From: Escherichia coli
GTDB taxonomy: Bacteria; Pseudomonadota; Gammaproteobacteria; Enterobacterales; Enterobacteriaceae
DNA length: 64,000 nucleotides
Assembly (NCBI RefSeq): GCF_003991155.1
Contig: NZ_CP031293.1
Reading direction: 5' to 3' (one strand)
Shown here: positions 819-26,863 of the stretch, in pieces
Layout: each line of letters starts with the position of its first letter
Numbering within the stretch: position 1 is the first letter of the stretch
Program-made: the position numbers and the translations under genes
The notes under the pieces: generated by a model
Seen by the model: only the letters and a program-made list of their open reading frames with translations
Told to the model about the DNA's origin: nothing
Databases searched by the model: none

Positions 819-832
819 CAGAGGATGCATTG

Positions 833-3800
833 ATGCCTGAAGTAAATTGGAAAGTATTCAACGAACTGCCCGGTGCAGCAGATGTGAACTTCGAAAACCT
901 TTGCCGCGCTCTGGTACGCCGACACTATGGTCGTTTCGGTCGCTTTAAGCAACTCGCAAATCAGCCTGGGGTGGAGTTTCACCTCGAGCTGACGGAGCCT
1001 TGTGATCTCGGTGCGCCACCAGGTTGGATTGGTTGGCAATGCAAGTGGTATGAACTGGTGAATGGACAAGATTTGGGAGCCTCCCGCCGCAACAAGATCA
1101 TCGAAGGTATCGAAAAGACGCGTAAGCATGTCCCTGGAGTGACCAATTGGAAGCTTTGGACTCATCACACGTTAACAAAAGGTGATCAAGAGTGGTTTTT
1201 CGCGCTAGAGCAAGACCGCTTCCCAGAATTGAAGTTAGAACTGCTCACAGCTACGGATATCGAAGATCTTTTGGTCGGACCGGGAGCGCTTTTACGAGAA
1301 ACCTACTTTGGTGAACTGGTTCTAACTCCAGAGCTAATTGCTGAGCAGTATAAGCTTGCAGTGGCCCCATTTAAGAACCGCTACCAGCCAGATGTTCATG
1401 TAGCGGTGGGGGCTGAGGAGAATATATTCAGGCATCTGTGCAGCCAAAACGCATGGGAATCTCTGGAAGAACTCTCAAACGCTTTAAAAAAGAATCATAC
1501 GAGCATTGCTTCGGTTACTGAGCAACTCAAAACTGAGCTCAGGGCTGAAGTTGAATTACTCCTGGCCCGGGTTATTGGGTTGACTGAGTTTATTGATGGC
1601 TTACACGCGGCGCTCGGCAAAGGTGACTTTAACTCTGTATATCAAGCGTTGGTTTCAAATCCGCGTCAGCCGGTACGTTATGACAGGCTACTTTCGAAAT
1701 TGCGTGGAGCGCGCTTTGACGGGGCTCCGTTAACCGCTAATTTGGTTGCAGATATCCACGCGGTTTCGTCAGTTCTCCGCAGTCTGGAGCAATCGATTAG
1801 TGCTCGGGCGGTTGCTGTTCTTGCGGCGGCGGGGGAAGGTAAGTCTGAACTTGCAGTCAAGGTAACACAGCCAGAAGGGGCGTTCCTAGGGGGAATCCTC
1901 CTATTAGGCAAGAATCTTCATTCAGGCCAGGGGCTTGATGATCTCGTATCTGCCTTCAAGATTTCTGGGAGACCAGCAGAAAGTTTTGACCGCCTGATTG
2001 AGGCCGTAGATGCGGCAGGCCAGCGTGCAGGTAAACGCATACCTATTGTTATTGACGGTCTGAATGAGGCGGAAGATCCGAGAAATTGGAAGGATGAATT
2101 ATCCCGAGTGGATGAGCTTCTAAAGAATTTTCCTTATGTCTTGTTAGTTGTCACTCTTCGCAATGAATTCGCCCAGATGTGTCTGCCTGAGGGGTTTCCC
2201 CAAGTTGAACATAATGGGTTTCAGGAAGATCCGAAGACAGCATTTGACAAGTATTTTGAGTACTACAAGATCGATGCTACTGATGCGGATCTACCAGTCG
2301 AACTCTTGCAGCACCCCTTAACACTGAGAATTTTTTGCGAAGTAGCAAATTCTCCTCGTCAGCATATTGTCGGAGTGGAAGCATTGCCCCGTTCGCTTGC
2401 AAGCCTGTTCGAAGCTCACTTTAACAAGGTTGCAGCACGAGTCGCTGAGCTTTCACCGACGATGCATCGCATTTATCAAGATGACGTTCAGGATGCACTA
2501 CTAACGATCGCGGGTCTTCTTTGGGATAACAATGCGAGAAGTGTGGATTTTCAGGCTACACGGATGGCAGTTCGGGATATGGGGTGGGACGACAGTATTA
2601 TTCGTGCACTGGAGTCTGAAGGCATTCTCGTTCGGACTATTTCTCCAGAAGGTAGGCAAGGAGTTGCGTTTGCATACGACCTAATGGCCGGACATATGAT
2701 GGCGCGCAACCTGCTTATGAAGCCTGAACTGGTGCAATGGCTACAAAGCGATGAAGGGAACGCAAAATTTAAATCTCATGGACCTGATTCGCATACCTTC
2801 GCTTATGACGTATTACGGGCTCTGGTTGATCTGTATCCGCAACACTCTGGTAGGCGGCAGCTTTGGCAAGACTTGTCGGATGATATACTCGTTATGAACG
2901 CTCTGCTATTGACGACGCAATCGGATCCAAGATATATCGGGCGGGCTACTGTTGAACGATTTGCTCAAGCTATGCAGGAGTCGAAGCGGTTTGCACAACT
3001 TGCCTTCGAGAGACTACGGAGCACTAGGGCTGCGCTGGCACATCCGTTTGATATGAGCTTTTTGCATGATGTGCTAATGGCTATGTCCAACACTCAGCGC
3101 GATCTTTTTTGGTCAGAGTGGATTCGTCAGAAATCTGAACAAGTTAAAGACGACTTAAAATTCTTGTCGACGAGATGGAAATCGGGTCATCTGGATGAGC
3201 GTGAACTTCGAAGAGTTCGCTGGGTAATGTGGACACTGACGACGACATCCAGAGCTTTGCGGGATATGGCTACCAAAGCCCTGTATGAATTTGCCATCAG
3301 GCGGCCAGAAGAGTTTTTCCGGTTAGCGACGGAGACAATTGTAGTTTCAGACCCATATGTCCCCGAGCGAGTGTTCGCCGCAGCCTACGGTGCAGTCCTG
3401 ACCACTTGGTCGGATATCGATGCGGTAGAGTTACATGATGCGTTGCCACGGTTCGCTCGTGAGATTTACCAAACCATGTTTGCACCTGGCGCTACAGCCC
3501 CTACCTGGCATGCATTACATCAGCAGTACTGTTTGGGAATCATTGCCATTGCGAGGATGGTCGATCCAAATTGTTTTTCAGAGGACGAAGCTGTTTATCT
3601 TCTTCCGCCATTTAGCCATCTGCCTAACGTATTTGAAAGCATTCAACCGTACGATCCAGAGATGATTGGGCGAGCGGAGAGCGCAGCGATTCAAATGGAC
3701 TTTGGTAACTATACGATTGGTGGACTTATTCCAGACAGAGCGAACTACGATGACAGTAATCCGGAGTACCAACAGGTGTTGCAGGCCATTGTTTCTCGAA

Positions 3801-4891
3801 TGCTGATGCTTGGTTATGACCCTGAGCAGTTTGAAGCTGTTGATCGGCAAATGTACTCCGGTTCTCGTATGGGAGATGACAAGCACAAAATCGATCGATA
3901 TGGCAAAAAGTACGGCTGGATAGCTTACTTCGAGATGTGGGGGATACGATACGCGCAGGGCCTCCTTTCCGAAGAACGCAGTGCTCGCCCATCAGATGCT
4001 GATATCGATCCAACGTTTCCGCAAAAAGTAGAGAGTATTAGTTTGTCACTCCCAGTCTTATTTAACGATCCGTCTGTGGATGATGGTGACTGGATCGTGG
4101 GAGGCCCGCTACCTGACTACCGTAGCATCCTTGAGATTACGGAGGTTGATGGTCTGACGGGGCCATGGATCCTACTTGACGGTTTTGTTGAGCAAAATGC
4201 TACCTCGGATGACCGACAGATTTTCACTTTCCTGCGAGGAGTATTCGTAGATAGCCAAGAAGTTGACAATCTATGTAGGTTGTTCATTGATCTTGAATAT
4301 CCTGGCAATAGCGCCATCCCTGATGCTCCTGGCTACTATTACACCTATGCGGGTGAGATGCCTTTCCCGACTATTCCGGGGCTGCTAGTCGCTAATGAAC
4401 AAGAGGATGATAGCGATGAAAATTTGGTGTTCGCAGAAAGATGGTCAGGCAATGGCGTTGCGGTAGATATCACAGTGCAGGACTACAACTGGGAGAGCTA
4501 CCATAGCGTGGAGAACCAAAGCAGCGGTGCGAGCCTGCCCTCAAAGCAACTTTGTGAGGCTTTGAATCTCAGATACTGTGCAAACAAATGGGATTTGCAT
4601 GATGCTGCAGGTGTAGCGTCACTTTACCGCAAAATTGACGAAAATGGTTCGGACGTCAGTGGCTCTGTCAGCTATCTACGTCGTGATCTACTTGACCGCT
4701 ATTTGATGCAATCCGGTAAGGTATTGGTATGGCTTATGTGGGGAGAGCGTGGTTTTCATTACCGGTCCAACAAGACACGCAATTTGCACAGGTATTACGT
4801 GAATCACCAACATATTCACAAGCGTATTCATATCCATCAGATAGCTTCGAGTACTAGTAACCCAAATATTGCGGATGGAGTCGCTATATGA
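833..4891 (+). CDS. STAND-class P-loop NTPase, Avs/NLR-like, with N-terminal Mrr-like (PD-(D/E)xK, QxK variant) nuclease-type domain
   Basis: Walker A-like AAAGEGKSELA and Walker B-like IPIVIDGLNEAED (the hhhhDGLNE form typical of NACHT/STAND NTPases); N-terminal NFENLCRALV...GWQCKWY resembles the Mrr catalytic core; long C-terminal region. ORF track starts at TTG 815; first ATG is 833. Confidence 0.55.
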   Translation: MPEVNWKVFNELPGAADVNFENLCRALVRRHYGRFGRFKQLANQPGVEFHLELTEPCDLGAPPGWIGWQCKWYELVNGQDLGASRRNKIIEGIEKTRKHVPGVTNWKLWTHHTLTKGDQEWFFALEQDRFPELKLELLTATDIEDLLVGPGALLRETYFGELVLTPELIAEQYKLAVAPFKNRYQPDVHVAVGAEENIFRHLCSQNAWESLEELSNALKKNHTSIASVTEQLKTELRAEVELLLARVIGLTEFIDGLHAALGKGDFNSVYQALVSNPRQPVRYDRLLSKLRGARFDGAPLTANLVADIHAVSSVLRSLEQSISARAVAVLAAAGEGKSELAVKVTQPEGAFLGGILLLGKNLHSGQGLDDLVSAFKISGRPAESFDRLIEAVDAAGQRAGKRIPIVIDGLNEAEDPRNWKDELSRVDELLKNFPYVLLVVTLRNEFAQMCLPEGFPQVEHNGFQEDPKTAFDKYFEYYKIDATDADLPVELLQHPLTLRIFCEVANSPRQHIVGVEALPRSLASLFEAHFNKVAARVAELSPTMHRIYQDDVQDALLTIAGLLWDNNARSVDFQATRMAVRDMGWDDSIIRALESEGILVRTISPEGRQGVAFAYDLMAGHMMARNLLMKPELVQWLQSDEGNAKFKSHGPDSHTFAYDVLRALVDLYPQHSGRRQLWQDLSDDILVMNALLLTTQSDPRYIGRATVERFAQAMQESKRFAQLAFERLRSTRAALAHPFDMSFLHDVLMAMSNTQRDLFWSEWIRQKSEQVKDDLKFLSTRWKSGHLDERELRRVRWVMWTLTTTSRALRDMATKALYEFAIRRPEEFFRLATETIVVSDPYVPERVFAAAYGAVLTTWSDIDAVELHDALPRFAREIYQTMFAPGATAPTWHALHQQYCLGIIAIARMVDPNCFSEDEAVYLLPPFSHLPNVFESIQPYDPEMIGRAESAAIQMDFGNYTIGGLIPDRANYDDSNPEYQQVLQAIVSRMLMLGYDPEQFEAVDRQMYSGSRMGDDKHKIDRYGKKYGWIAYFEMWGIRYAQGLLSEERSARPSDADIDPTFPQKVESISLSLPVLFNDPSVDDGDWIVGGPLPDYRSILEITEVDGLTGPWILLDGFVEQNATSDDRQIFTFLRGVFVDSQEVDNLCRLFIDLEYPGNSAIPDAPGYYYTYAGEMPFPTIPGLLVANEQEDDSDENLVFAERWSGNGVAVDITVQDYNWESYHSVENQSSGASLPSKQLCEALNLRYCANKWDLHDAAGVASLYRKIDENGSDVSGSVSYLRRDLLDRYLMQSGKVLVWLMWGERGFHYRSNKTRNLHRYYVNHQHIHKRIHIHQIASSTSNPNIADGVAI

Positions 4892-5049
4892 GTTACGACT
4901 TCAGAAATCTTTCATCCGCAAACTTTGAGGATCTTGTGCGGGATCTTATCGAAAAAGAAGAAGGGTTCGCTTCGAAGCATTCTCTGTGGGGGCTGATAAT
5001 GATATTGATGGCCGACACGCACATGCTGGAGGGAATGTCAGTTTATAGG
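4888..5049 (+). pseudogene. 53-codon remnant beginning a Mrr-like nuclease domain, ATGA-coupled to the STAND gene stop
   Basis: ATG 4888 overlaps the STAND stop (4889-4891); MSYDFRNLSSANFEDLVRDLIEKEEGF parallels the N-terminal motif of the upstream STAND protein, then terminates early; followed by about 1.2 kb AT-rich ORF-free DNA. Confidence 0.3.
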
Positions 5050-6264
5050 TAAAACCTTATGAAGGGGCGTCGTTTAGTATACTGATGGCTATTATGAAGT
5101 GTGAGTGGTTGTCTAAAGATAAGCTAGCCCTCACACGCTGTATCAAGCGACCTCTTGTTAGCTTACTCCAGCTAGCAAGAGTAAACTTTCCCCACTCATA
5201 GGGCTATGTTTGAAGTCCGAGTCGGAAATTGGGGGGCAGAAGACATAAAAGGTCTCCTTAAGAAGTCTTCTTGTCTGTACAAAAACTCTTATTTTGACAA
5301 AGAGCATTGTAGTTATTAACAGGCTGATTAATAAATTTAAAAATAAGTCGTCAGGAACACCAGATTAGCTACCCAAATTCTCATGCCGTGGAAGCGGAAG
5401 AAAAATACTCCCCTGAATATCTTCATATCGGATATACATAATAAGCTTGAGGTTGTATATTTGAAGAATTGAGTAGCCAGAGCCTTGTTGACATAAAGCG
5501 ACACGAACAACATGTTACTTAAAATATCACGAGTATATATTCAGACTTGTTTATGTTGCGACATGGATTCTACAGGCAGCTGGCTGAAACAGTGAGTCAG
5601 AAAAATTTACAGGAGCGCCATAGTCATTAATGGATATCCGTAATATGCTGATGCAAAAGGGTAAGGAGTTTGCCGGTAATCTGCGGTGTTAGACGACAAT
5701 TACAAAACGACCTTAGGCGTCAATTACCGCTGAAAAAAGTGACAGATCACTTTCTATAAAATGCTGCCGTATGACCGACAGATTTATTCCGCTTTATAGC
5801 CATGACTGTTCGGTGCTCACTTCGCTGCGCTCCGCCTCAGTCCTGCCTAAAAAGCGTTGCAGGTTAGTTTGTATCGGCCTAATGAAAGGCTGTTTTAGCG
5901 AAGCGTAAATGTGACATCTTATCTGGTCTAATCTCTTTGCGATAATTGACGCAAAAGCATGGGCTGTAATTGTCACGCAATACTGCGGCAAGTCTCATGA
6001 TGATGCCTCTGACAGGGATCTCCGTAGCCATTAACTGGTCGATTGGTAAGCTAAAACAAAAAAATTGAATTTGTCAAGACAGCCATAATGACTACCATTT
6101 TCGTCTCTGCTTTTCCATCCTGAAATTAATGGCTATCATATTCGCAATAGACAACATCATCTTACTTGCACTCAACTATAACTAATGCTGAGTGCAAGAA
6201 ACGGGGATTATATCCCCTATCAAGGACCTGTTGAAATATTAGTCTGGAATTTCGAGGCTGTAAT

Positions 6265-6789
6265 TTAAATTGCTCCATTTGCCTTAGCATCAAGAATGAA
6301 TTTTTCATACTCGCGTTCTGCAACAACAACAGGGACTGTTTTGCGATTATATAATTGCATTAATAACAATGTACGATGCCTTCCATCAGAAACACCAAAT
6401 TCACTGTTAGATGCCTCTGGATATTCAACATACCCTTTTGATATATATTTTTTGATTTTATGCCATCTACGCGGATCAATGCAGAATGCTCCATCTCCTA
6501 ATTTTTTAAGAAAGGCTAGCCCATCGACATATACAATCCTGGTAGGACAATGCCGATAGCGTACAGGAAGGGTAAAGATAATATTTTCAAAAACAGGGAA
6601 AGTAAGACCTGAATCATCTTTAGGTATTGACTCAAAGGAATCAAAAGGATATTTTGTCATGTAATCATTTAGTTTTTCAATATCCATATTGGAAAACCAC
6701 GATACTTCCGGGAGAAATTTTTTATCTCTTTCTCTAATTTCTTTGATCGAATCTCCAAATATATCATCTAACCTCCACCCCTCTTTCAT
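6265..6789 (-). CDS. hypothetical protein with C-terminal ParB/Srx-like DGRHR motif
   Basis: 174 aa; GVSDGRHRTLLLMQL near the C-terminus resembles the DGxHR signature of ParB/sulfiredoxin-fold nuclease domains; AT-rich gene downstream of an Rhs immunity gene. Confidence 0.45.
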   Translation of the reverse strand: MKEGWRLDDIFGDSIKEIRERDKKFLPEVSWFSNMDIEKLNDYMTKYPFDSFESIPKDDSGLTFPVFENIIFTLPVRYRHCPTRIVYVDGLAFLKKLGDGAFCIDPRRWHKIKKYISKGYVEYPEASNSEFGVSDGRHRTLLLMQLYNRKTVPVVVAEREYEKFILDAKANGAI

Positions 6790-6833
6790 TTATGCTCCTA
6801 AAATAATGTGATATTAAAAATTCTGTTAATAAG

Positions 6834-7349
6834 TCAAATTTTATGAATACTAATAAGGGGTTTGCACCACTCAACCGAGAGAATATCTTCCATTTTATAA
6901 AAAACGCCATAATCACTTTGATTATAATGCTCAATTTTATCAGCCATTTGTAATCTAATTTTGTCTTTGTAAATTCTACTTCGGATCAAACTGGCGAAAT
7001 TATATATATCAACCCTCAGATTGATAATATTATTTCTATCTGGGCGTCTTTCATGTAACATATCACGAAAAGAAACAAGTAACGTAATTAATTTTTTAGC
7101 CTCATTATTTTTAATATATCCTTTTTTAAAGATGCATAATATTAATTTTGAAATTAAGCTGATTTTTATTTGTAAATTATAGATAGCATTATCGTTTGTC
7201 AGGCAGGTTATGACTTCAATTACTTCACGTGAGCGAATATAATTGTCCAGTGCTTCCCATTCATCCATTCCTCGATGCATTGAAAGTTCCAATTGCCTTA
7301 AAAAAGCATATAACCCCAATAAGAAGTCGCTATTGCAGTATATTTTCAT
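6834..7349 (-). CDS. putative Rhs immunity protein (cognate to orphan Rhs-CT at 7346-8737)
   Basis: 171 aa, AT-rich, immediately downstream of the Rhs-CT gene with a 4-bp ATGA overlap; family not recognised. Confidence 0.5.
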   Translation of the reverse strand: MKIYCNSDFLLGLYAFLRQLELSMHRGMDEWEALDNYIRSREVIEVITCLTNDNAIYNLQIKISLISKLILCIFKKGYIKNNEAKKLITLLVSFRDMLHERRPDRNNIINLRVDIYNFASLIRSRIYKDKIRLQMADKIEHYNQSDYGVFYKMEDILSVEWCKPLISIHKI

Positions 7350-8737
7350 GAATCACATCCTTTAATAAAACTCATTATTCGTGACCAAAAAGAGTCTTTT
7401 TTGTATATAGGGTTTTTATCGTTTAATGGTAAAGGATCGTCTGTTGGTATAACGGCTGTATTTCTTGGCCCAACATTTGTTTTAGTAAGTGAATCTTTGG
7501 AAGCATCAAACTCTACATAAGAACCATTCTTCCATGCCCCTGTTTCTGCACCTGCCGTTTTAGGATCTCCAAATGGCTCCACCTCAACGTGTACACCAAC
7601 AGGATTGCCTCTGGCAGGGTTGATAGACCCATCCTTGCTAATTCCATCAATACCCTCTGTTGAAGTATGATGTCTAACTCTAACAGTATCGTCACCAGTT
7701 AACCCTAACGGATCAATAATTTTTAGCGGATTAAATACATATCCATACAGGCAATCCCCACCTCTCAGCCCCATCGGATCAGCACACAGATACTGCCCCG
7801 TATCGCAATCATAATACCTGAATCGGTTATAGTACAGGCCTGACTCAACATCCTCGTACTGCCCCGGAAAACGTAACCGGCATGTGGGCGCATCTTCTTT
7901 ACTGATGCCTTCCTCACGCCCCCAGAGCTGCTGCTTGCCTTTCCAGACTATCAGACCCTCTTCGGTCAGCAGTTCTTGTACGCGGCCAGTTGTGTCTGTT
8001 ACCGCATAATGCAGTTGCCCCTTTTCATAACGCGCAAACGGCGTGAAATCTCCCGGCTCGTATATCCAGCGGATGGCGTTTTCATCTTCCGGTTTGCCGT
8101 CAGCGCCAACCGGAATTTCCGCCGTCAACTGGTCGCCGTTCCAGTGAAAATCCATGCCGCGTTTGTCGCGGCTGGTACAGCGCTTGCTGATGCGCCTGCC
8201 GAACGGGTCATACTTATATTCCCAGCGTTCGCCCTCCGGTGTTTCCAGTCCGGTCAACTGGCTGCGTGCATCCCATTTATAACGCCATTCCAGTGGGCGA
8301 TAACCCCCTTTATCCACCAGTTTCTGTACCAGCCTGCCGTTAACATCATATTTCCAGGTGATGTTGTGCGCATTCACCACCCGGACAAATCTCCCGTCTT
8401 CCCCTTTTCCGGTGTCCGGGTTGATGCGATGCGTCGAGTGCCGCCAGCCTTCATGTTCCCGCGATACCACACGACCATGCTGCTGTTGCTGGTGCGTCTC
8501 GCTTTCCAGTACGTTATTCACCCTGATCTGGCGACGGGTAATGTTCAGGTTTTTATCGTAAGTGAACAGCTCCTCGCACAGCGGAAACTGGCTGGAATCA
8601 CCCGTCCAGGTGGCGTGGCTTATCTGGTCGTTTGCCGTGATGGTGTTGAACATGGAGCCGCGCAGCGAGTCGGCGATTGCGGTGAGGTTATACGCTTTGT
8701 CGTAGCTTCGCTGCGTCGGGAGGTTTCCATGCCGCAC
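7346..8737 (-). CDS. orphan Rhs C-terminal fragment: end of YD-repeat core plus variable C-terminal toxin domain
   Basis: YD-repeat-like segments (YKYDPFGRR, WIYEPGDFTP) and the core-terminating motif YYNRFRYYDCDTGQYLCADPMGL...DPLGL, followed by a ~115-aa unrelated C-terminal domain; GC-rich core against AT-rich tip. No full-length Rhs N-terminus upstream. Confidence 0.75.
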   Translation of the reverse strand: MRHGNLPTQRSYDKAYNLTAIADSLRGSMFNTITANDQISHATWTGDSSQFPLCEELFTYDKNLNITRRQIRVNNVLESETHQQQQHGRVVSREHEGWRHSTHRINPDTGKGEDGRFVRVVNAHNITWKYDVNGRLVQKLVDKGGYRPLEWRYKWDARSQLTGLETPEGERWEYKYDPFGRRISKRCTSRDKRGMDFHWNGDQLTAEIPVGADGKPEDENAIRWIYEPGDFTPFARYEKGQLHYAVTDTTGRVQELLTEEGLIVWKGKQQLWGREEGISKEDAPTCRLRFPGQYEDVESGLYYNRFRYYDCDTGQYLCADPMGLRGGDCLYGYVFNPLKIIDPLGLTGDDTVRVRHHTSTEGIDGISKDGSINPARGNPVGVHVEVEPFGDPKTAGAETGAWKNGSYVEFDASKDSLTKTNVGPRNTAVIPTDDPLPLNDKNPIYKKDSFWSRIMSFIKGCDS

Positions 8738-8850
8738 AGGTCGTGCTCAAATGTCAGCGGGGCATGGTCCGCTATTCGCCATGACGTAAGATGCCCCATC
8801 AGGTCGCGGGTGAAGCGTTCTGTGATACCCTCAGCCTGTAATTTTACAGG

Positions 8851-9285
8851 TTAAATGGGGAATTTTTCTTCAATGAGCTTCAAGCCAAGTAATGCCATAT
8901 CATGAATATCTTCATCATGCGATTGAGCCGAAATTTTCAACCCGTTTACCATTCTTTTATCTGGGAAAGACATTGTTAATATAGTACACCAAAGCCTAAC
9001 GCTTTTTATTGTGTTAGGATTTTCGAGTATGTTAACGATATTTATAACAACATCATTAAAATCACACTTATAGAGAAAATCCTCAACAATTTGATATACT
9101 CCAAGACCATCACCCTCACCAAAAGATCGCAAAAATAAAGGTATTGCATCTTTATCGGGATGGGAAAGAAAGTAAATTCGTACCTCATCGTATTTATCTA
9201 TAAGATCCTGAGTAATATCACAATCCGCGGGCATTGGTTGATGTAGTGACAGGAACTCTAATGCTTCTTTTTTATTCATATTCAT
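8851..9285 (-). CDS. putative Rhs immunity protein (cognate to the IS-truncated Rhs-CT at 9282-9763)
   Basis: Small ORF starting immediately after the upstream toxin stop; likely start at the internal Met (MNMNKKEALEF). Confidence 0.45.
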   Translation of the reverse strand: MNMNKKEALEFLSLHQPMPADCDITQDLIDKYDEVRIYFLSHPDKDAIPLFLRSFGEGDGLGVYQIVEDFLYKCDFNDVVINIVNILENPNTIKSVRLWCTILTMSFPDKRMVNGLKISAQSHDEDIHDMALLGLKLIEEKFPI

Positions 9286-9763
9286 ATATTTAATGATTCC
9301 CAAAGTTTTTTATTCTGTCTGGCTAACTCATATAGTTGTTCAGTGATGACCTTTTTATCATAGCCTGCATTTGTTAAGATTTTTCTTAGGTCATCTATAT
9401 CCCTTTTCAAATATTGTTCTTTTGTCAAACCTCGAACAAATGCTCGTCTGAATGTCCAGGTAAGAGCATGTAAATCTTTACGCAGATTTATCGTAATTCC
9501 CTTACATTTTGTTGTGGGGCTTACCGCATCCTGAATGGCATGATGAGGTGTATGAGTTGCATTAAGCCCTGTTTTACCATTCGCATAAATTGAAGAACCA
9601 TATGTACCAACGTATAAATCTTCTCCTGGACCAGCTAACAATCCCAAGGGATCAATCCATACCAGTGGATTTGGAGCGTAATTGTAAAGGTTTACTCCCC
9701 CCGACAGTCCAATCGGATCAGCACACAGATACTGTCCTGTCTCGCAATCATAGTACCGGAACC
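9282..9763 (-). pseudogene. Rhs core tip plus C-terminal toxin domain, 5'-truncated by the IS3-family element
   Basis: Rhs-derived coding begins at RFRYYDCETGQYLCADPIGL...DPLGL exactly at the IS left terminus (9764); the annotated Met and first ~16 codons are read from IS terminal sequence. C-terminal domain of unknown family. Confidence 0.65.
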
Positions 9764-11013
<1,250 letters not shown>

Positions 11014-11016
11014 CCA

Positions 11017-11385
11017 CTACAATGAGAGCATAAGTACACCTGCCGTCATTTCTGGTACGGCAACGCCCCCCGGTGTATAAGCTGTCCCGTTAATGATGAT
11101 GTCACAGGCGGGTTTCAGGGGGGCGAGGTCGCTTTCGCGCAGTACCGGAGATGTGTTCATCTCCCCGGCATACTCATCTTCCACACACAGCGGTAGCGGC
11201 GGGTTTTCGATAAGTTGGGTTTGCCACTGACCATTTTCGTCCCGTTGCAGCCGGAAGCCCGTTTTCATGGCGATAACGCGGTGACGTTCGCTATGTTTAT
11301 CATCCATCGCATATTCTATCGCTGAAAACGGCGTCAGGTTACGAAATTCCATATTGCACCCCGATCCCGTCTGTACCTGTCGCAA
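11017..11385 (-). pseudogene. N-terminal fragment of a gene truncated at the IS right end
   Basis: ORF runs into the IS right terminus and hits a stop inside the inverted repeat. N-terminus MEFRNLTPF... is tentatively reminiscent of T6SS-associated DUF2169-type proteins, from memory only. Confidence 0.35.
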
Positions 11386-11790
11386 AACATAATTCTACAG
11401 ATGGCACAGTATCCCCCTGATACAGGTAAAAACTTATTTCACGGAAACCGGCATAGCAAACTGGATGACACAATACCGGGCAAAACGATAAGTATGGTTA
11501 CTATATGAAACGGAATACTCCCGTTTCGTATTATTTTTTTTGACTGATATCAACGGGACGAATTAACTGACAGGATATTTACTGGAAAGTGTCTGCATAT
11601 TGCTCAATATATTTTTAATGGAAATGTATTCTCCATTAATATTTATGGTGTGATTGTGTTTCCCTGTGTGTCAGCTTCCGCTAAACCCCTTGCTGCAAAT
11701 TACCGATCATTGTATTGTTGCGCCGCGCCTGCAAAATCAGGCGTCGGGATTGGAACCCTGATAAGTGTTACAGGCGACATATAGCGCATT

Positions 11791-12426
11791 TTGCGTCTTT
11801 TTTATGTCGTGCGTCTGGCTGCATCTCAATGGTGGGCTGGACGGGGGCGTCGCAAGACGCGCCGGTTTCCTGTAACACCGGTAGTTCCAACCCCGTTCAG
11901 TTCACCACCAATGAGATTGGAACCTCTGGTGGTGGAATTACCACCCGTTACAGGAGGCTATCCTATGGTTATCATCCTTTCCCCTGACTGCGACTTACTT
12001 TCCATCCCCTTCAGTGCCACCACGGATTTCACCGATCTGGCCGACTACTGCGATCGCTTCGCTGAAACCCTGATCGAATGCCACGATCCGGCGCTGAAAA
12101 TGGCGCTTTATGGCAGGATCAACGCCAGCCTTGCGCTGCTGCGTCCCTCGTTGGGCGAGCCGATCCCGCTGCACCTGATCGACCGTTTCATTGTGGACAC
12201 GCTTCCCGACGTTTCACCGCGCTTTGAACCCGGCGCAGGGCTGCTCTGTGACTACTGTCTGGCGCTGACGCAGGTATTAAGCGGGCGGTCGCTGCTGCCG
12301 GAAACCGAAACCACACTGACCGGGTTGCTGTGCGAACTGGTCTGGTATTTTGCCGCCGACCTTAAAGCGCCGCAGTGGCTGCGCACCGCTGATGGCTTAC
12401 AGGTTATTGACGGGGGGACGGTATGA
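11791..12426 (+). CDS. hypothetical protein, translationally coupled to the downstream Ner-like gene
   Basis: GC-rich ORF whose stop overlaps the Ner-like start (ATGA at 12423-12426); true start uncertain. Confidence 0.35.
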   Translation: MRLFYVVRLAASQWWAGRGRRKTRRFPVTPVVPTPFSSPPMRLEPLVVELPPVTGGYPMVIILSPDCDLLSIPFSATTDFTDLADYCDRFAETLIECHDPALKMALYGRINASLALLRPSLGEPIPLHLIDRFIVDTLPDVSPRFEPGAGLLCDYCLALTQVLSGRSLLPETETTLTGLLCELVWYFAADLKAPQWLRTADGLQVIDGGTV

Positions 12427-12677
12427 TGCAACCGGACTGGCATCCCGCCGATATCATGGCAGCACTGCGAAAACGTGGTACGTCGCTGGCAGCGGTTTCC
12501 CGCAAAGCGGGACTGGCGTCCGCCACACTGGCAAACGCGCTGAGCCGCTCCTGGCCGCGTGGCGAAAAACTCATTGCGGATGCGCTGGAAACATCACCGG
12601 AAATTATCTGGCCGTCCAGATATTTCGATGATCAGGGCAACCGTATTGTAAGGCTCATGCGAAAGCAGTGCTCCTGA
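12423..12677 (+). CDS. Ner/Nlp-family DNA-binding protein
   Basis: DWHPADIMAALRKRGTSLAAVSRKAGLASATLANALSRSWPRGEKLIADAL...IWPSRY matches E. coli Nlp / Mu Ner closely from memory. Confidence 0.8.
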   Translation: MMQPDWHPADIMAALRKRGTSLAAVSRKAGLASATLANALSRSWPRGEKLIADALETSPEIIWPSRYFDDQGNRIVRLMRKQCS

Positions 12678-12796
12678 TGACAGAAGTGTCAGAAACACGA
12701 TTACAGTAAAATCAGGCTCTCCCGGCTCTCTGCCTGCTTCTGCTGGCGGAGAGCCGGGAGAAGACAAGCGAAGCGCGGCAGGATGCCATCCCGCTG

Positions 12797-13099
12797 TTGA
12801 TAACAGTCACAACCGGAGTCGTTTTTATGCACATGTTTAATCCACCCCATCCGGGTGACGTCCTTCGCGATTATCTGGACGGCGTGAGCATCACGCAGGC
12901 CGCTTCCCGGCTTCAGGTATCGCGCTCGCGGTTATCCCGTATCCTCAATGGACATGCACCAGTGACGGCTGATATGGCGCTACGTCTGGCGGCGCTGCTG
13001 AATACCCGCGCTGAACTGTGGACGGGGATGCAGTCTGAGTATGGCCTCTGGCAGGCGTCACAAAAACCACGACCCGTTATCCGGTCATTGCGGGGTTAA
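12797..13099 (+). CDS. HigA-family HTH (XRE-type) antitoxin-like protein, no adjacent HigB-like toxin ORF
   Basis: NPPHPGDVLRDYLDGVSITQAASRLQVSRSRLSRILNGHAPVTADMALRLAALLNT...ELW is the HigA/VapI pattern; likely start at internal Met (12827 or 12833). Confidence 0.7.
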   Translation: MITVTTGVVFMHMFNPPHPGDVLRDYLDGVSITQAASRLQVSRSRLSRILNGHAPVTADMALRLAALLNTRAELWTGMQSEYGLWQASQKPRPVIRSLRG

Positions 13100-13186
13100 C
13101 TCAGCATTTTACATTCACAAATACACGATAAAATCAGGGGGAAAACCAATATCCAGAAAAATGAGTTTCCCCTTTCTGCGCCAGAA

Positions 13187-15521
13187 ATAACGGTGTAATC
13201 TCCCTCCTGCATTGTCGCCTTCGGGCACCCTTTGGCTTCATGGTCTGCAAGAAGCCCCTGATTTATCAGGATGACCAGCCCTTACTACCGGTACGACCTC
13301 CGCAATACCGGAACGCGAAAGCGTTTGAGGCTAAGAGTACATACACCCGAACGGCTTCATCGTCATTGCTTAACGGCAACAGTCTTCACCGGCTGAACGG
13401 CTTTTCTTTGCCGGAATTTCCCGACTGCCCCATACCCAGCTGAAAACAGCGCCCTTTACATGACGGGCTGCGGCCTGCATTGCCGTCAGGCTTTGCTGCC
13501 GCGTGACCGTCATTCTGCACCAGAAACGCAACGTTTACCCCCTGCACCAGATGAGGCGTCACTTTGGTCGCGCCAGCGAAAAAGCAAAGTGACGCCGTAC
13601 AACATACCGCCGCAAGCCGCGCCAGTTCTGGCCTGCGTCCTGTTTCCGCCGTCTGACATGCCCTTTGGGGCGCTGTCAGTCCAGAGTAAAGGAGAAAAAG
13701 ATCGATACCGAGGGGGGCACGACGCCCCGGAGATACCCCTGCTTCGTCAGGCAGTCTGTACCGCGTACAGCCTGAAACTCCCTAAACCTCAACAATCAGC
13801 CACTCCGGCGTGAAGGTATCGTTCTGGCGCAGCCAAAAAGCACACGCCGGAGACTGTTTGTTTTTTGTTGCAGGGGGTAGTTATGAGCAAATTAAGCAGT
13901 GAAATGAAGGCGCTGGCGAAAAAAGCAGGCGGTAGTTTCAGAACGGTGGACTACCGTATCCATGCCACGAAGCGGTTCAGTCAGCATTTACGCGAACTGA
14001 ATATTCAGATCCAGCGGGTGGAGCAGATCAAAGTTCGCCATATCGAATGCTATATTCAGGAGCGGCTGGAGCAGGATATTGGCCTGCGCACGCTGCAAAA
14101 CGAAATGGCGGCGCTGCGGGCCGTGCTGAGGCTGGCGGGACGCCGGCAGGTGGTGGAGCATCCGCGCCTGACCAATAAGGCGCTGGGGCTGTCAGGTGCT
14201 TCGCGCAACGGCACGCGTCGCGCCATCACGCCGGAACATTATGAAAAAGTGATGGAGAACGCCCGCGCACAGGATGCGGGGCTGGCGGCAGCGGTGGAGA
14301 TCGCGCGACTGATGGGATTACGCTCGCAGGAGGCGGTACAGAGTTCACAGTCGCTGAAAACGTGGCTGAAAGCCATTTCCCGCGGCGAAACCCGGCTGAA
14401 AGTGGTGTTTGGCACCAAAGGCGGGCGTCCGCGTTACACGACGCTCCTGGACGCTGGCGCAGTCAGGAAGGCGGTGGAAAACGCATTACCGATCGCCAGA
14501 CAGCGCAATGGCAGGCTGATCGACAAGCCAGACCTTAAAACGGCGCTGGAGAGCTGGCACAAACAGGCCATTAAGGCGGGGCTGAAAGGGGAATTTTCCC
14601 CGCACTCGCTGCGTTATGCGTGGGCGCAGGACGCGATCCGCCATTATCTGGCGCAGGGATTCAGCGAAAAGGAATCGCTGGCGCTGACGGCGACGGATCT
14701 GGGTCATGGCGACGGTCGCGGCCGCTGGGTGAAACAGGTGTACGGCTACCGCTGGAAGGAGGAATAACGGCTTTCATGAATGGCGCAAAATAGTACGTTA
14801 CTGCGTAACGACAGCGATTTATCGTACCCTCTGTACCGGATCTGGCGCAGGGGGCGAGCGGGTTTGTATTGTGAAAATATCGTTACAGCATGACGAATAA
14901 ATATCAATAGCTCAGATTTTCCTGCTGAACCAATGTAGCTCGCCGGAATATTATAGTGATTACCCGGTAATCACTCGAAACGATCCCGATTAATAGCTGG
15001 TGTTTCAATCGTTTTACCGATATTACAGGTACAGGGTCGGGAAATTTTAAAATGTAAACTCACCGAGGCATCACATTAATTCTGGCGCAGGATTATATCT
15101 GAATAATTCTCTCTGTGTTTTCCTGCATCCTGTGACATATATTGCATGGTCACAGAATGTCTCATGATTTTATAAAAAATGCTGCGACGGTTTTTGACAT
15201 CATAACCTGCTGCATATAGATTAATAATTTTCGGTGCTTCATGTTATTTTTTTGCGCTCTGTGATCGTTATCTGGTGGTGAAAATACAATCTGGTGCAGA
15301 CTGTCATGGTGCATTTCTGAATAAACTGGTTGCGCCAGAAAGGGAAAGGGCCATAAAGGTTAAGGGGCGATAAGGGTAACAGCGCCTGACCGGAAAGGGC
15401 CGAAAACCAAAGAGCCAGAAACTGGCGCAGTCCTGAATGTGTGAAGTGGCGAGACGCTGGCGCAGATAACCGATCTTCCGGGGCTGGTGCAGATTATTTC
15501 GTCTCTGTATATCTGGTGCAG
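13187..15521. repeat. dispersed array of at least 10 copies of the decamer TCTGG(C/T)GCAG
   Basis: Copies at 13187-13195 (inverted), 13823-13832, 14841-14850, 15081-15090, 15289-15298, 15330-15338 (inverted, degenerate), 15421-15430, 15456-15465, 15483-15492, 15512-15521; mostly in non-coding DNA flanking the integrase-family gene. Confidence 0.7.
13883..14767 (+). CDS. tyrosine-recombinase (phage integrase) family protein, short form
   Basis: C-terminal FSPHSLRYAWAQDAIRHYL...GRWVKQVYGY has the HxxR...H...Y pattern of tyrosine recombinase catalytic domains; AGGGGG Shine-Dalgarno precedes ATG 13883. Confidence 0.5.
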   Translation: MSKLSSEMKALAKKAGGSFRTVDYRIHATKRFSQHLRELNIQIQRVEQIKVRHIECYIQERLEQDIGLRTLQNEMAALRAVLRLAGRRQVVEHPRLTNKALGLSGASRNGTRRAITPEHYEKVMENARAQDAGLAAAVEIARLMGLRSQEAVQSSQSLKTWLKAISRGETRLKVVFGTKGGRPRYTTLLDAGAVRKAVENALPIARQRNGRLIDKPDLKTALESWHKQAIKAGLKGEFSPHSLRYAWAQDAIRHYLAQGFSEKESLALTATDLGHGDGRGRWVKQVYGYRWKEE

Positions 15522-15579
15522 TTATAATATGTATCAGGGAAGGCTGTCCGGTATTTTATGACGCCTCTTTTAGAGTATA

Positions 15580-15654
15580 TTAATTGGTATTTCCGTGAAA
15601 ATATCGCTTATTGATAGTTTTTCATCTTCCGTGATTAACGCGTTAATCACGGAA
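15580..15654. promoter_or_regulatory. two adjacent palindromes (candidate operator or hairpin sites)
   Basis: Perfect 30-bp palindrome CTTCCGTGATTAACG/CGTTAATCACGGAAG, then an inverted repeat TACCTATCAA(N11)TTGATAGGTA. Confidence 0.4.
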
Positions 15655-15776
15655 GACTGTTACCTATCAAAAAAAGATATATTGATAGGTAACGGTCAAA
15701 TTTTATTTGGGGCCAAATAATTGTAGATACTTTCCGATTGGTAATAAAAAAGAACAACGGCAATACCTCTCAATAC

Positions 15777-15814
15777 AAAAAAGCAGATCCCGGCCAATCA
15801 GGATCTGCTTTTCC
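15777..15814 (-). terminator. intrinsic terminator downstream of the P4-type integrase reading frame
   Basis: Inverted repeat AAAAGCAGATCC...GGATCTGCTTTT followed on the minus strand by a T-run. Confidence 0.55.
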
Positions 15815-15841
15815 ATTTTAATGATTTCAGCTATTTATGAC

Positions 15842-17104
15842 TCAGGCTGCCTTATGCTGCCGCGCATAAATATACGGCGCGACATACCCCTCGCGGCACA
15901 CATCCAGATAATCCGACCACCACTGCATCATGGCCTTTCTGGCCTCCAGATGCTCCGCTTTATGCACATAGGCCGCCCGCACGCTGTTACGCTCCTAGTG
16001 GCTCATTTGCCGTTCCACCGTATCGCGTGACCAGAGATCCGACTCTACCAGGGCGCTACAGGCCATTGCGCGAAGTCCATGTCCGCACACATCGGTTTTC
16101 GTATCATACCCCATCAGGCGCAGCGCCCGGTTGGTTGTGTTTTCGCTCATTGGCTTGTACGGGTTATGGTCGCCGGGGAATACCAGATCCAGATGGCCGG
16201 AAAGCTCCTGTATCTGTTTCAGAATGGCAATCGCCTGGCGGGAGAGTGGCACGATATGCGGACTACGCATTTTTGCGCCACGCCCCGAAAACCGTACTTT
16301 GTCGATGGCCTCGCGGGTGGCGGGGATGGTCCAGATTTTGTGCCTGAAATCAATCTCGCTCCAGCGGGCGAAACGCAGTTCGCTGGAACGGATGAACAGG
16401 TGCAGTGTCAGCACCACCGCCAGCCGGGTTAACTCCCGGCCCTGCCGGTAATCGCCAATACGATCGAGCAATTCAGGCAACCGCTCCAGCGGTAAAGCGG
16501 GATAGTGATTCTTGACGGGAGAGGCGACTACACCATCCAGATGCTGCGCCGGGTTGCTTTCGGTCAGTCCCTGCTGAACGGCATAGCGCATGATGTTGCT
16601 GAGTTGCTGCCGGGTTCGGGACGCGACTTCCAGAAAGCCCTTATCCTCAATAACCCGCAGCAAAGCCGTGAAATCCTGCGTTTTAAGCGCAGCAACGGGC
16701 AGATGACCAATCGCCGGGAAGATATGGTTTTCCATACTGGCGAGAATACGGGCGGCATAATCAGCCGACCATTTTTTGTTGGTTTTGTGCCAGGCCAGCG
16801 CCACCGCCTTAAAGCACTTTTCAGGGGAGCAGGCGGATTTCTCTGCCATACGCTGTTGCGCCGGGTTGATATTCTGCGCCAGTAGCTTGCGGATACCGTC
16901 GCGCTGTTGCCTGGCTTCTGCCAATGAGACAAGCGGATATGCGCCAAGACTGACTCTGGATTCTTTTCCGTTGAAACGATATTTGAGATACCAGATGCGT
17001 GAACCACCCGGATTGACGAGCAGATACAGACCCTGAGAGTCGGAGAGTTTTACCGGACGGGAAGAAGACTTTAACTTGCGGATTTTAGAATCGTTTAAAG
17101 ACAT
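15842..17104 (-). pseudogene. P4-type tyrosine integrase interrupted by an in-frame amber codon (TAG at 15995-15997)
   Basis: N-terminus MSLNDSKIRKLK...GLYLLVNPGGSRIWYLKYRFNGKESRVSLGAYP is P4-integrase-like. Translation stops after ...VERQMSH, but the same frame continues ERNSVRAAYVHKAEHLEARKAMMQWWSDYLD... to a stop at 15842-15844; the catalytic-Tyr region lies after the amber. Confidence 0.75.
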
Positions 17105-17265
17105 TTGGGGGTCACTCCAGAATCGAACCAAACTGACCCCAGATCTGACCACCAAATTATCCCGATGCGGAGAGAAAATTAGATACGCACCGGGAAGGAT
17201 TTTCACGCTAACTTACTGAATCGTAAACAAATAGAGACGCATAGATAAGCATGAAAACTTGAATT

Positions 17266-17341
17266 TGGCTCCTCTGACTGGACTCGAACCAGTGACATAC
17301 GGATTAACAGTCCGCCGTTCTACCGACTGAACTACAGAGGA
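17266..17341 (-). tRNA. tRNA-Asn (GUU)
   Basis: 76-nt reverse complement of TCCTCTGTAGTTCAGTCGGTAGAACGGCGGACTGTTAATCCG...GGAGCCA; anticodon loop CUGUUAA. Confidence 0.95.
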
Positions 17342-17441
17342 ATCGTGAGAACGAGGCGAATATTAGCGACGCTCATCCACAATGTCAAAGCCTGTTTTTT
17401 AAATTTGAAATCGTTTGCTGAAATAATCTGCACTTTGTCGT

Positions 17442-19088
17442 TTATTCCGACACAACTGGCTTTTTTTCACACTTTTGCGGCTCAGGTCGAGGATATTTCC
17501 ACAGCCAACGTCCAGTAACCATTCGCCAGTAAAACAGCACGGCCCGCACAGCCCAGTCGGCAAACATTCCCATCCAGACACCAACTACACCCCAGCCAAG
17601 CATGATTCCCAGCACATAACCGACTACAACCCGGCAACCCCACATGCTCAACATAGAAACCCACATGGCGTAACGTGCATCGCGAGCACCCTTAAATCCA
17701 GCGGGTAGCACCCATGAGGCAGACCAAATAGGCATAAATAAAGCATTTAGCCAAATCAGAATCACAACGACATGTTTAACCTGTGGATCCTGGGTGTAAA
17801 ACGATGCCATAACCCCGGCAAAGGGAGCCGTTAGCCAGGCGATGGCCGTTAATCCAAGAGTGGACAGCCAGAACACATGCCGCAACTGAATCTCTGCTTG
17901 CGCTATCTGCCCTACCCCCAACCTTCGGCCTGTAATGATCGTAGAAGCAGAGCCGAGCGCACTTCCGGGTAAGTTGATAAGAGCCGCAATTGAAAACGCG
18001 ATAAAATTTCCGGCAATAACACTGGTCCCCATCCCGGCAACGAACATTTGGGTTAATAACCGACCACTGGTAAATAACACTGATTCGACACTCGCTGGAA
18101 TACCAATCCCCATGACTTCCCAGATAATGCTAAAATTCAGCGGGTTAAAATAGCTCTTTAACGAAATTCTTAGCGCAGGATTAAAACCAATCGCCAGCAC
18201 CCACAAAATTGCAACTGCGCCAATATAACGAGAAATGGTTAAACCCAACCCAGCCCCGACAAATCCCAGTCCCGGCCAGGAGAAAAGGCCGTAAATCAAT
18301 ATGCCGCTAATAATAATATTAAGAATATTCAGGCTACCGTTAATCAGTAGCGGTATTTTCGTATTCCCTGCACCACGAAGTGCCCCGCTACCAATCAAAG
18401 TGATGGCAGCTGCTGGATAACTGAGTACCGTCAGCTCCAGATAAGTCAACGCCAGTGCTTTAACTTCTGTCGTGGCATCACCCGCGACGAAATCAATAAT
18501 TTGTTCGCCAAAATGATGAATAAGCGTTGCCAACAGTACGGCAAACAACGTCATGATCACCAATGACTGCCGCGTCGCCACCCTCGCTCGTCGTCGATCC
18601 CGCTTACCGAGACAAAATGCCACAACGACAGTAGTACCAAGATCGATAGCAGCAAAAAAAGCCATAATGACCATATTGAAGCTGTCCGCCAATCCCACGC
18701 CGGCCATCGCATCTTTTCCCAGCCAGCTGACCAGAAAAGTGCTCAGGACCCCCATCAACAGGACACAGGCATTCTCCATGAAGATAGGAACAGCAAGCGG
18801 GGTTATCTCGCGCCAGAACAACACTTTGTAGCTCTTGCGTTTAGCGTGCCAGCGAGTGCCGTGAACAACCTGGCGTAAAGCAGAGGAGATATTCAAAGCC
18901 GACCTTAATTGCAGAAAGTGAAACCACATTTCAAATAATGAGGGAGAATCAGCAAAGCTGCAAAGATTTTCGCCAACAAATTGTCTGCAAATGCAACAAA
19001 CTGTTGATAGAAACGGCAAACGGTTGGGAAATTTAAAAATCGGGTTTGACAAAAGATTTTTCGCCGTTAAGATGTGCCTCAACAGCAA
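17442..19088 (-). CDS. yeeO: MATE-family efflux transporter YeeO
   Basis: 548-aa polytopic membrane protein in the yeeO position between two tRNA-Asn genes; N-terminal ~60 codons are not membrane-like, so the true start may be internal. Confidence 0.75.
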   Translation of the reverse strand: MLLRHILTAKNLLSNPIFKFPNRLPFLSTVCCICRQFVGENLCSFADSPSLFEMWFHFLQLRSALNISSALRQVVHGTRWHAKRKSYKVLFWREITPLAVPIFMENACVLLMGVLSTFLVSWLGKDAMAGVGLADSFNMVIMAFFAAIDLGTTVVVAFCLGKRDRRRARVATRQSLVIMTLFAVLLATLIHHFGEQIIDFVAGDATTEVKALALTYLELTVLSYPAAAITLIGSGALRGAGNTKIPLLINGSLNILNIIISGILIYGLFSWPGLGFVGAGLGLTISRYIGAVAILWVLAIGFNPALRISLKSYFNPLNFSIIWEVMGIGIPASVESVLFTSGRLLTQMFVAGMGTSVIAGNFIAFSIAALINLPGSALGSASTIITGRRLGVGQIAQAEIQLRHVFWLSTLGLTAIAWLTAPFAGVMASFYTQDPQVKHVVVILIWLNALFMPIWSASWVLPAGFKGARDARYAMWVSMLSMWGCRVVVGYVLGIMLGWGVVGVWMGMFADWAVRAVLFYWRMVTGRWLWKYPRPEPQKCEKKPVVSE

Positions 19089-19089
19089 T

Positions 19090-19165
19090 TCCTCTGTAGT
19101 TCAGTCGGTAGAACGGCGGACTGTTAATCCGTATGTCACTGGTTCGAGTCCAGTCAGAGGAGCCA
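19090..19165 (+). tRNA. tRNA-Asn (GUU)
   Basis: Sequence identical to the minus-strand copy at 17266-17341, ends in CCA. Confidence 0.95.
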
Positions 19166-25576: not shown

Positions 25577-26009
25577 AGTGACACCTTCTTTACGGAGTTT
25601 TTCTTTATCAGCCAACTATGCGCTGATTGTTGTGTATACCGAGCGCAACTATAAAAAATTGCTCTGCAGAAAATATTGCCAACATGCATGACAGACTCGT
25701 GTAAAAATCGTGCTAACATAACAAATTATTGTCATTGCCGAATCATGCAACACAGCTTTAATCAGTGTTGAAGTAATAATTTCCACCAAACTTTTACAAT
25801 AAAAAATTGCCATCATGACATAATAAAATTGAAACAAATATCACAGTTCCTTCCTCGAACCAAACTCAACGAAATATTATTCGCGATTAAACTCACTAGC
25901 CAACGCAATTAATTCACATTGAAACATCCACAAAACAACCAATAAATTAACAACATATAGTTCATAAAAGCAATTTTATTATATTTGTTCTCTAGGTAAT
26001 GACTCCAAC

Positions 26010-26513
26010 TTATTGATAGTGTTTTATGTTCAGATAATGCCCGATGACTTTGTCATGCAGCTCCACCGATTTTGAAAACGACAGCGACTTCCGTCCCAGC
26101 CGTGCCAGGTGCTGCCTCAGATTCAGGTTATGCCGCTCAATTCGCTGCGTATATCGCTTGCTGATTACGTGCAGCTTTCCCTTCAGGCGGGATTCATACA
26201 GCGGCCAGCCATCCGTCATCCATATCACCACGTCAAAGGGTGACAGCAGGCTCATAAGACGCCCCAGCGTCGCCATAGTGCGTTCACCGAATACGTGCGC
26301 AACAACCGTCTTCCGGAGCCTGTCATACGCGTAAAACAGCCAGCGCTGGCGCGATTTAGCCCCGACGTATCCCCACTGTTCGTCCATTTCCGCGCAGACG
26401 ATGACGTCACTGCCCGGCTGTATGCGCGAGGTTACCGACTGCGGCCTGAGTTTTTTAAATGGCGGAAAATCGTGTTGAGGCCAACGCCCATAATGCGGGC
26501 GGTTGCCCGGCAT
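26010..26513 (-). CDS. insB: IS1 InsB (transposase catalytic part; InsAB' by -1 frameshift at the A6C motif)
   Basis: 167 aa InsB sequence; TTTAAAAAAC motif present on the coding strand. Confidence 0.9.
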
Positions 26514-26707
26514 CCAACGCCATTCATGGCCATATCAATGATTTTCTGGTGCGTACCGGGTTGAGAAGCGGTGTAAGTGAACTGCAGTTGCCATGTTTTA
26601 CGGCAATGAGAGCAGAGATAGCGCTGATGTCCGGCGGTGCTTTTGCCGTTACGCACCACTCCGTCAGTAGCTGAACAGGAGGGACAGCTGATAGAAACAG
26701 AAGCCAC
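26432..26707 (-). CDS. insA: IS1 InsA
   Basis: [43 protein letters not shown]...; 91 aa. Confidence 0.9.
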
Positions 26708-26863
26708 TGGAGCACCTCAAAAACACCATCATACACTAAATCAGTAAGTTGGCAGCATCACCTGTTCTCTATTAATTTTTCTCATTAGCCGAGTAAGTCA
26801 GCCATTCTTTTTCCTCGCTTTTTTTTATAGTCATATCGTCAAAAAAATCCAGGCGAGGTCTTT

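Follow-up and report, generated by a model that had tools for sequence, protein, structure and literature searches.

tRNA-Asn loci are integration hot spots for P4-like integrases, as illustrated by the HPI, the pks island and the ROD21-like islands (PMC8209727, PMC2606025, PMC6035254). The HPI inserts at an asn tRNA and carries short direct repeats at its flanks (PMC2606025), and in most E. coli it has been immobilised through deletion of the right direct repeat (PMC2606025; PMC8209727). [quoted passage not shown] ROD21-like (EARL) islands at Asn-tRNA genes feature a P4-like integrase downstream of the tRNA-Asn attL, together with direct repeats (PMC6035254). In pandemic Vibrio cholerae, the Aux3 T6SS element has become fixed via lost recombination capacity (PMC7721734).

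Here we analyse an island at a tRNA-Asn gene in a 64,000-nucleotide stretch of Escherichia coli DNA (contig NZ_CP031293.1, assembly GCF_003991155.1), hereafter the window, in which the island's integrase gene, int, is interrupted by an in-frame amber codon. We consider it very probable that a recent nonsense mutation has made this cognate integrase a young pseudogene, with the loss of excision and integration by the island's own enzyme.

An asnW island with an interrupted integrase frame

The integrase gene is a 420-codon tyrosine-recombinase frame on the minus strand that runs from an ATG at 17104-17102 to a TGA at 15844-15842 and, upon translation, contains a single in-frame TAG as codon 370. 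It lies 161 bp downstream of a tRNA-Asn(GTT) gene in the same orientation, and beyond that tRNA gene (17266-17341) follow yeeO, a second tRNA-Asn gene, ldtA, cobTSU and the pdu operon. The features on which the analysis rests are the following:

1-17261, strand not applicable: in-window part of the ~18-kb asnW island (PADLOC, PHROGs, Pfam, annotation of relatives)
15842-17104, minus strand: full ancestral frame of a P4-type (arm-binding) tyrosine integrase, 420 codons, pseudogene (translation, Pfam, RefSeq)
15998-17104, minus strand: truncated ORF of 369 aa, both DNA-binding domains (arm and core) kept (translation)
15995-15997, minus strand: amber TAG, codon 370, ancestral CAG (intact sister allele, C versus T at nt 1108)
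16388-16390 (R239), 16271-16273 (K278), 16079-16081 (H342), 16070-16072 (R345) and 15998-16000 (H369), minus strand: catalytic codons ahead of the stop
15842-15994, minus strand: untranslated rest of the frame, with the Tyr379 helix (Tyr codon 15968-15970) and two C-terminal helices
15842-15982, minus strand: residual 46-codon ORF with a GTG start, MRAAYVHK..., preceded by AGGAG at 15996-15992 with a 9-nt spacer (labelled a hypothetical protein by one depositor, GJG83681.1)
17262-17281, minus strand: proximal 20-bp att direct repeat CCAGTCAGAGGAGCCAAATT, made up of 16 nt of the tRNA 3' end and 4 further nt (alignment with the empty asnW site)
17266-17341, minus strand: tRNA-Asn (GTT) gene at the asnW position, the integration target, which forms the proximal att site (ARAGORN; RefSeq in relatives)
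17360-17388, minus strand: sigma-70-like promoter of the tRNA-Asn gene, TTGACA-17-TAATAT (consensus scan only)

Homology with the empty asnW site of strain D4 is lost exactly at ...AATTTGGCTCCTCTGACTGG, that is, after the 16 nt of the tRNA 3' end and 4 nt more. The distal copy of the repeat falls outside the window, ~754-773 bp to the left of its position 1 (positions 16227-16246 of locus L003, from strain MRY15-117), and is therefore not visible within it. Positions 1-15841 are matched end to end by 21 complete genomes, with identity displayed as 100.0%, and in MRY15-117, one of these, the island extends over ~18 kb from yeeN to the tRNA gene and keeps both att repeats. The locus thus shows the layout of a P4-like tRNA-Asn island, with the integrase gene downstream of a co-oriented tRNA-Asn gene whose 3' end is duplicated distally, the distal copy being taken from the relative.

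The island's cargo includes an Avs2-type STAND anti-phage gene (815-4891, plus strand; PADLOC PDLC02164, E=8e-116), ahead of which lie a viperin-like radical-SAM gene (22-414; PDLC02903, E=5e-20, cut by the window start) and a DUF6375 gene (411-818); together these could form a three-gene defence module. Orphan Rhs C-terminal toxin/immunity cassettes occupy the region 6265-11385, where an IS3 copy (9800-11013) leaves an Rhs gene truncated and borders on a short DUF2169 gene (11017-11385). Sister strains differ beside this IS3: one locus (L004) is without window positions 11022-11976 and has a longer Rhs fragment. Further cargo consists of small HTH regulators, a HigA-like gene and a second, intact integrase-like gene (13865-14767, plus strand; Pfam Phage_int_SAM_2/Integrase_1, phrog_1 integrase), whose orthologue in strain D4 has become a pseudogene through an internal stop.

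Upstream of int, the only promoter-like site is that of the tRNA gene (17388-17360), and transcription could read through from it into int. The 161-bp spacer between the two genes (within 17104-17341) is highly conserved with the 95%-related island of D4 and partly with the CFT073 pks island, a conservation that fits putative arm-type or regulatory sites in attL. On the far side of the tRNA genes, the divergent regulatory region between pduF and pduA carries a 768-bp IS1 (25995-26762) flanked by a 9-bp target duplication, TGTTCTCTA, at 25986-25994 and 26763-26771. This IS1 is absent from all nine relatives compared (L001, L003-L010) and is thus private to the source strain, where it might affect pdu/pocR expression.

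Integrase family and origin of the amber allele

The gene had been called a P4-type integrase in the initial annotation, and this assignment agrees with both its domains and its predicted fold. In the repaired frame Pfam recognises Arm-DNA-bind_3 (PF13356, residues 3-87), Phage_int_M (PF22022, 98-191) and Phage_integrase (PF00589, 224-384), namely the three-domain architecture (arm-binding, core-binding, catalytic) of lambda/P4-type integrases. When the PDB was searched by sequence, using the whole protein, the catalytic domain alone or a 31-sequence profile, matches covered the N-terminal and central domains only, the best of them the arm-binding domain 3JTZ, annotated as 'CP4-like integrase', so that the catalytic residues could not be mapped in that way. 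A conservation alignment was built from 141 diverse relatives (35-96% identical) obtained in a representative search: R239, K278, R345 and Y379 are invariant in it, and H342 and H369 are present in 139/141 and 140/141 sequences, respectively. These residues are the canonical R-K-HxxR-H-Y set of tyrosine recombinases.

An AlphaFold model based on a shallow alignment yielded a poor catalytic domain (pLDDT 67) and was discarded; with the 141-sequence alignment, the repaired protein was modelled with a mean pLDDT of 94.4. The best structural match of this model in the PDB is full-length lambda Int (1Z1B, E=3e-10), followed by Tn1549 Int, XerD, XerH, IntI and Cre. Furthermore, its arm domain superposes on that of the HPI integrase (3JTZ, 72% identity, TM 0.94) and on 3RMP, whose PDB title refers to the 'recognition of attP substrates by P4-like integrases', and the repaired protein shares 71% amino acid identity over 417 residues with the integrase of the CFT073 colibactin (pks) island. 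Domain composition, model and similarity to the pks and HPI enzymes, both characterised members of the tRNA-Asn island group, therefore make 'P4-type integrase of a tRNA-Asn island' the correct description.

Translation bears out that the frame meets a TAG after ...VERQMSH and stays open beyond it (...DTVERQMSH*ERNSVRAAYVHKAEHLEARKAMMQWWSDYLD..., with an ancestral CAG for Gln370 at the stop); the Pfam Phage_integrase match spans the stop, and no further lesion is found in the part of the frame 3' of the TAG (15842-15994). The altered T had been placed at 15995, which needs correction: the codon reads from 15997 to 15995, and the mutated base corresponds to plus-strand position 15997, an A on that strand. 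Of 5426 complete E. coli genomes searched for the exact 41-mer with the T at its centre, 28 contain it, at one copy per genome. These 28 genomes, hereafter the TAG genomes, were independently assembled in many sequencing projects, and they come from hosts and sources such as humans, cattle, pigs, sheep, dogs, a cat, a mink, a chicken, wastewater and surface water. Among complete E. coli genomes, full-length alleles at least 99% identical are confined to this set; the next nearest, ~95% identical, are annotated as ordinary integrase genes and have CAG at the codon where examined (strain D4). Of the 120 best database matches, 116 carry glutamine here, reading H-Q-ERN..VRAAY, and a stop at codon 370 is absent from all other relatives compared (120 close matches and 141 representatives).

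The exact repaired 420-aa protein exists in nature (P0135, e.g. CP163898.1; UniRef UPI000A176551), encoded on contigs that share the pdu-cob-ldtA-yeeO-tRNA-int-island context of the window; no such intact sister allele is present among RefSeq complete genomes, and it was found only in other public assemblies. The P0135 gene and the allele of the 28 TAG genomes differ at one position, nt 1108 (C versus T), in full agreement with the single CAG-to-TAG change that had been proposed. The int gene of the window departs from the 28-genome allele at one further base, a synonymous C>T at nt 181 (Leu61), and three P0135 loci compared with the window over 14 kb show two differences only, both of them these int SNPs. 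These one-base and two-base differences place the alleles in order, from the intact allele through the amber allele to that of the window. All of the steps appear, by sequence comparison, to have been taken within one clone and very recently; ST457 is the known type of two of the 28 TAG genomes, MRY15-117 and MRY15-131 (PMC5430464).

Could the T simply be a sequencing or assembly error, the gene being intact in the organism? Single-base differences are the commonest type of error, but 28 complete genomes, each sequenced independently, carry the identical TAG 41-mer, public assemblies contain the truncated product in 145 index blocks, and the window shares the TAG allele with the addition of one synonymous change only, which leaves this reading a vanishingly small probability. 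The 369-aa product has been deposited many times (e.g. BAX15456.1, by exact-sequence look-up), and the 145 index blocks that hold it compare with 105 for the intact allele. At such a frequency the TAG allele is not strongly counter-selected at least, and it might even be favoured. The gene combines a premature stop, an identifiable ancestral CAG and a heritable lesion (28 genomes, 145 blocks), as expected of a nonsense pseudogene, and RefSeq/PGAP already labels it in relatives as a pseudogene, 'tyrosine-type recombinase/integrase', with an 'internal stop'. As an integrase pseudogene it is accordingly ordinary and already flagged in public annotation.

Position of the stop relative to the catalytic residues

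Codon 370 directly follows H369 and lies nine codons ahead of Tyr379, the product ending 10 residues short of that tyrosine. In the AlphaFold model, the stop removes the helix that bears the tyrosine (374-379), a long helix (386-405) and a final one (410-416). The complete catalytic set, R-K-HxxR-H/W-Y, is thus united in one polypeptide in the ancestral frame and not in the present ORF. Between 24 and 77 residues follow the tyrosine in 141/141 family representatives; a full-length C-terminus of this kind, with at least 24 residues past the tyrosine in relatives, is absent from the present product. The expectation that the truncated product would be without the tyrosine region is therefore upheld by the 141-sequence alignment, in which the stop precedes the invariant Tyr379, and by the model.

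We also compared the gene with intact orthologues, as had been put forward as a check, and asked whether relatives end naturally at the same place, which had been named as a possible refutation. Intact orthologues have 420 aa with glutamine at codon 370; none of the 120 closest database proteins naturally ends at ...QMSH, and none of the 141 diverse representatives ends ahead of the catalytic tyrosine. Short homologues that could have passed for natural ...QMSH ends were rejected as such, P0079, P0089 and P0120 being frameshifted and P0047, P0073 and P0075 being cut by contig ends.

In tyrosine recombinases the 3'-phosphotyrosyl link is made by the tyrosine as nucleophile, and an enzyme deprived of this residue cannot cleave DNA. 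Given the loss of Tyr379 and the absence of any relative that ends before the tyrosine, the 369-aa product should therefore be catalytically dead, in keeping with the established chemistry of tyrosine recombinases. We propose the following course of events. The int product would have served as the cognate site-specific recombinase of the ~18-kb island in the 3' end of tRNA-Asn (asnW), until a single recent C-to-T transition in one clonal E. coli lineage converted the Gln370 codon from CAG to the amber TAG. Translation would now end after the second catalytic histidine, H369, and yield a 369-aa product in which both DNA-binding domains are retained along with five of the six active-site residues, while Tyr379 and the C-terminal helices are missing. 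Such a product would be unable to cleave DNA, the gene would be a young pseudogene, and the island could not rely on its own integrase any more for excision or integration. The lack of secondary lesions downstream of the stop is expected if the mutation is very recent; it may also fit continued use of the frame and so speak against this explanation.

Continued use could take the form of read-through of the amber, either by supE/glnV carrying a CUA anticodon or by near-cognate decoding, so that some full-length integrase would be made and excision would proceed at a reduced rate. A supE suppressor inserts glutamine at UAG, which is the exact wild-type residue here, and the textbook suppressor would hence restore the protein precisely; in addition, low-level natural read-through of UAG may occur, and, with integrases acting at very low abundance, a level of 1e-3 to 1e-4 could conceivably give rare events. 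Against this, a supE44-type anticodon 41-mer is present in 157 genomes, and the 60 matches listed are laboratory K-12-type strains and derivatives with none of the 28 TAG genomes among them. The window's two tRNA genes (ARAGORN) are both tRNA-Asn, with no suppressor tRNA there, and no read-through signal was identified. We regard read-through as very unlikely.

A split enzyme would require re-initiation at the GTG at 15982, with a 46-aa peptide bearing Tyr379 that complements the 369-aa fragment. An AGGAG (15996-15992) overlaps the stop 9 nt upstream of this in-frame GTG, and the C-terminal coding part is undamaged. Both the AGGAG and the GTG are, however, found in the intact allele too, so nothing has evolved for re-initiation; five residues would be missing from the assembled pair, the conserved E371 and N373 among them; and no member so divided exists among the 141 representatives and 120 close matches. 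No tyrosine recombinase severed at the position of codon 370 is known to have reassembled spontaneously, and such complementation appears exceedingly improbable. There is likewise only a very slim chance that the allele is more than decay, be it as a dominant-negative 'lock' formed by the 369-aa fragment or as a two-piece recombinase via the GTG at 15982. If a lock were at work, the fragment would occupy att and arm sites and shield the Avs2/viperin-like island from excision by the paralogous asn-tRNA integrase present in the same genome, which might explain why the TAG allele is so common in the clone.

Mobility of the island and comparison with known systems

Returning to simple loss of function as the preferred reading, we infer that recombinase activity is gone and the island thereby immobilised; as regards its own enzyme, it is likely fixed. 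Its mobility may have been limited already, as PADLOC and PHROGs searches of the island for an excisionase (RDF) recognised none, their matches being confined to a HigA-like antitoxin and to HTH regulators or repressors of generic type.

The remaining route to mobility is action in trans on the att repeats by another enzyme, either the island's own intact Integrase_1/phrog_1 protein (13865-14767) or int2, an intact integrase beside another tRNA-Asn gene that is present in 28/28 TAG genomes. Both 20-bp repeats are also intact in those relatives whose sequence agrees fully with the window's part of the island. On the other hand, int2 is only 54% identical to the pseudogene product, and its cross-action is not the default expectation, given that the N-terminal domain of P4-type integrases recognises arm sites specific to each island (PDB 3RMP title). 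No RDF was recognised in the island, as mentioned above, and the direct-oriented distal repeat is absent from 7/28 TAG genomes (2016C-3878 type); owing to the deletion described below, the island is fixed in those seven genomes whatever the state of int. Mobilisation in trans is therefore unlikely, and we retain the view that the island has probably been stranded by the loss of its cognate enzyme.

The int2 gene lies ~40 kb from the pseudogene in MRY15-117, in a small island of its own bounded by a 15/16 repeat. Compared with MRY15-117 (L003/L011), the 2016C-3878 type (L001) has apparently lost ~27 kb between two direct IS3 copies, including the Avs2 module, the distal att repeat, yeeN, amn, shiA and an 8-kb Ig-like gene. 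The gene order indicates that the two IS3 copies recombined, deleting the ~27 kb and fusing the island of the interrupted int with that of int2; the fused composite, found in 7/28 genomes, is bracketed by inverted tRNA-Asn genes.

The surrounding gene order varies as well. In K-12, cbl and nac are situated between asnU and asnV. The same order is usual in E. coli (PMC8209727), and here both genes are missing between the tRNA-Asn genes (17266-19165). In MRY15-117 (L011) they are found ~40 kb away, beside a third tRNA-Asn gene and int2, whereas 2016C-3878 has, on the far side of cbl, the remnant of a tRNA end with a 15/16 match (L001 35955-35970). The displacement of cbl and nac suggests an asn-tRNA-mediated translocation.

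The interrupted gene is of little consequence outside annotation. As a marker, the SNP sets apart a sub-lineage within a widespread E. coli clone that occupies multiple hosts (two typed members ST457), and TAG and CAG strains whose locus is identical across the compared 14 kb at least provide a natural pair for measuring the role of the integrase in defence-island stability.

The closest known counterparts are copies of the same gene, BEN53_RS07935 (2016C-3878) and CPZ03_RS05755 (MRY15-117), which have the TAG and the tRNA-Asn/yeeO position and match the window at 1262/1263 nt, the window differing by its extra synonymous change. The intact sister allele P0135 encodes the same protein bar Gln370 in the same island, site and flanks; it has CAG in place of TAG and, judged from its sequence, is presumably active. 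Int_HPI of the Yersinia/E. coli HPI (3JTZ, 3RMP) is P4-like too and has a closely similar arm domain (72% identical, TM-score 0.94), but the HPI has been fixed by repeat deletion and not by an int nonsense codon, and carries yersiniabactin genes as cargo. The pks (colibactin) island, at asnW/asnU/asnV, shares the tRNA-Asn/yeeO neighbourhood and an integrase of 71% identity with the SHQERN..AY motif; it differs in that integrase and both repeats are intact and in its other cargo. As for ROD21-like (EARL) islands, the ~18-kb island showed none of the genes that typify them (RDF, H-NS paralogue, pilin/relaxase), and identification of the pseudogene as a ROD21/EARL integrase was rejected: it is int2, only 54% identical to it, that resembles, at ~90% nucleotide identity, an integrase in E. 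coli D7, which is among the strains listed with an EARL island (PMC6035254). With Aux3 the asnW island has in common that an element with competition or defence cargo is grounded in a successful clone; in Aux3, however, the element is truncated and its RDF gene lost, with experimental proof, whereas the asnW island would owe its presumed immobility to an int nonsense codon. The locus is thus an ordinary, if very young, instance of an already known pattern, in which decay of the recombination module leaves genomic islands fixed.
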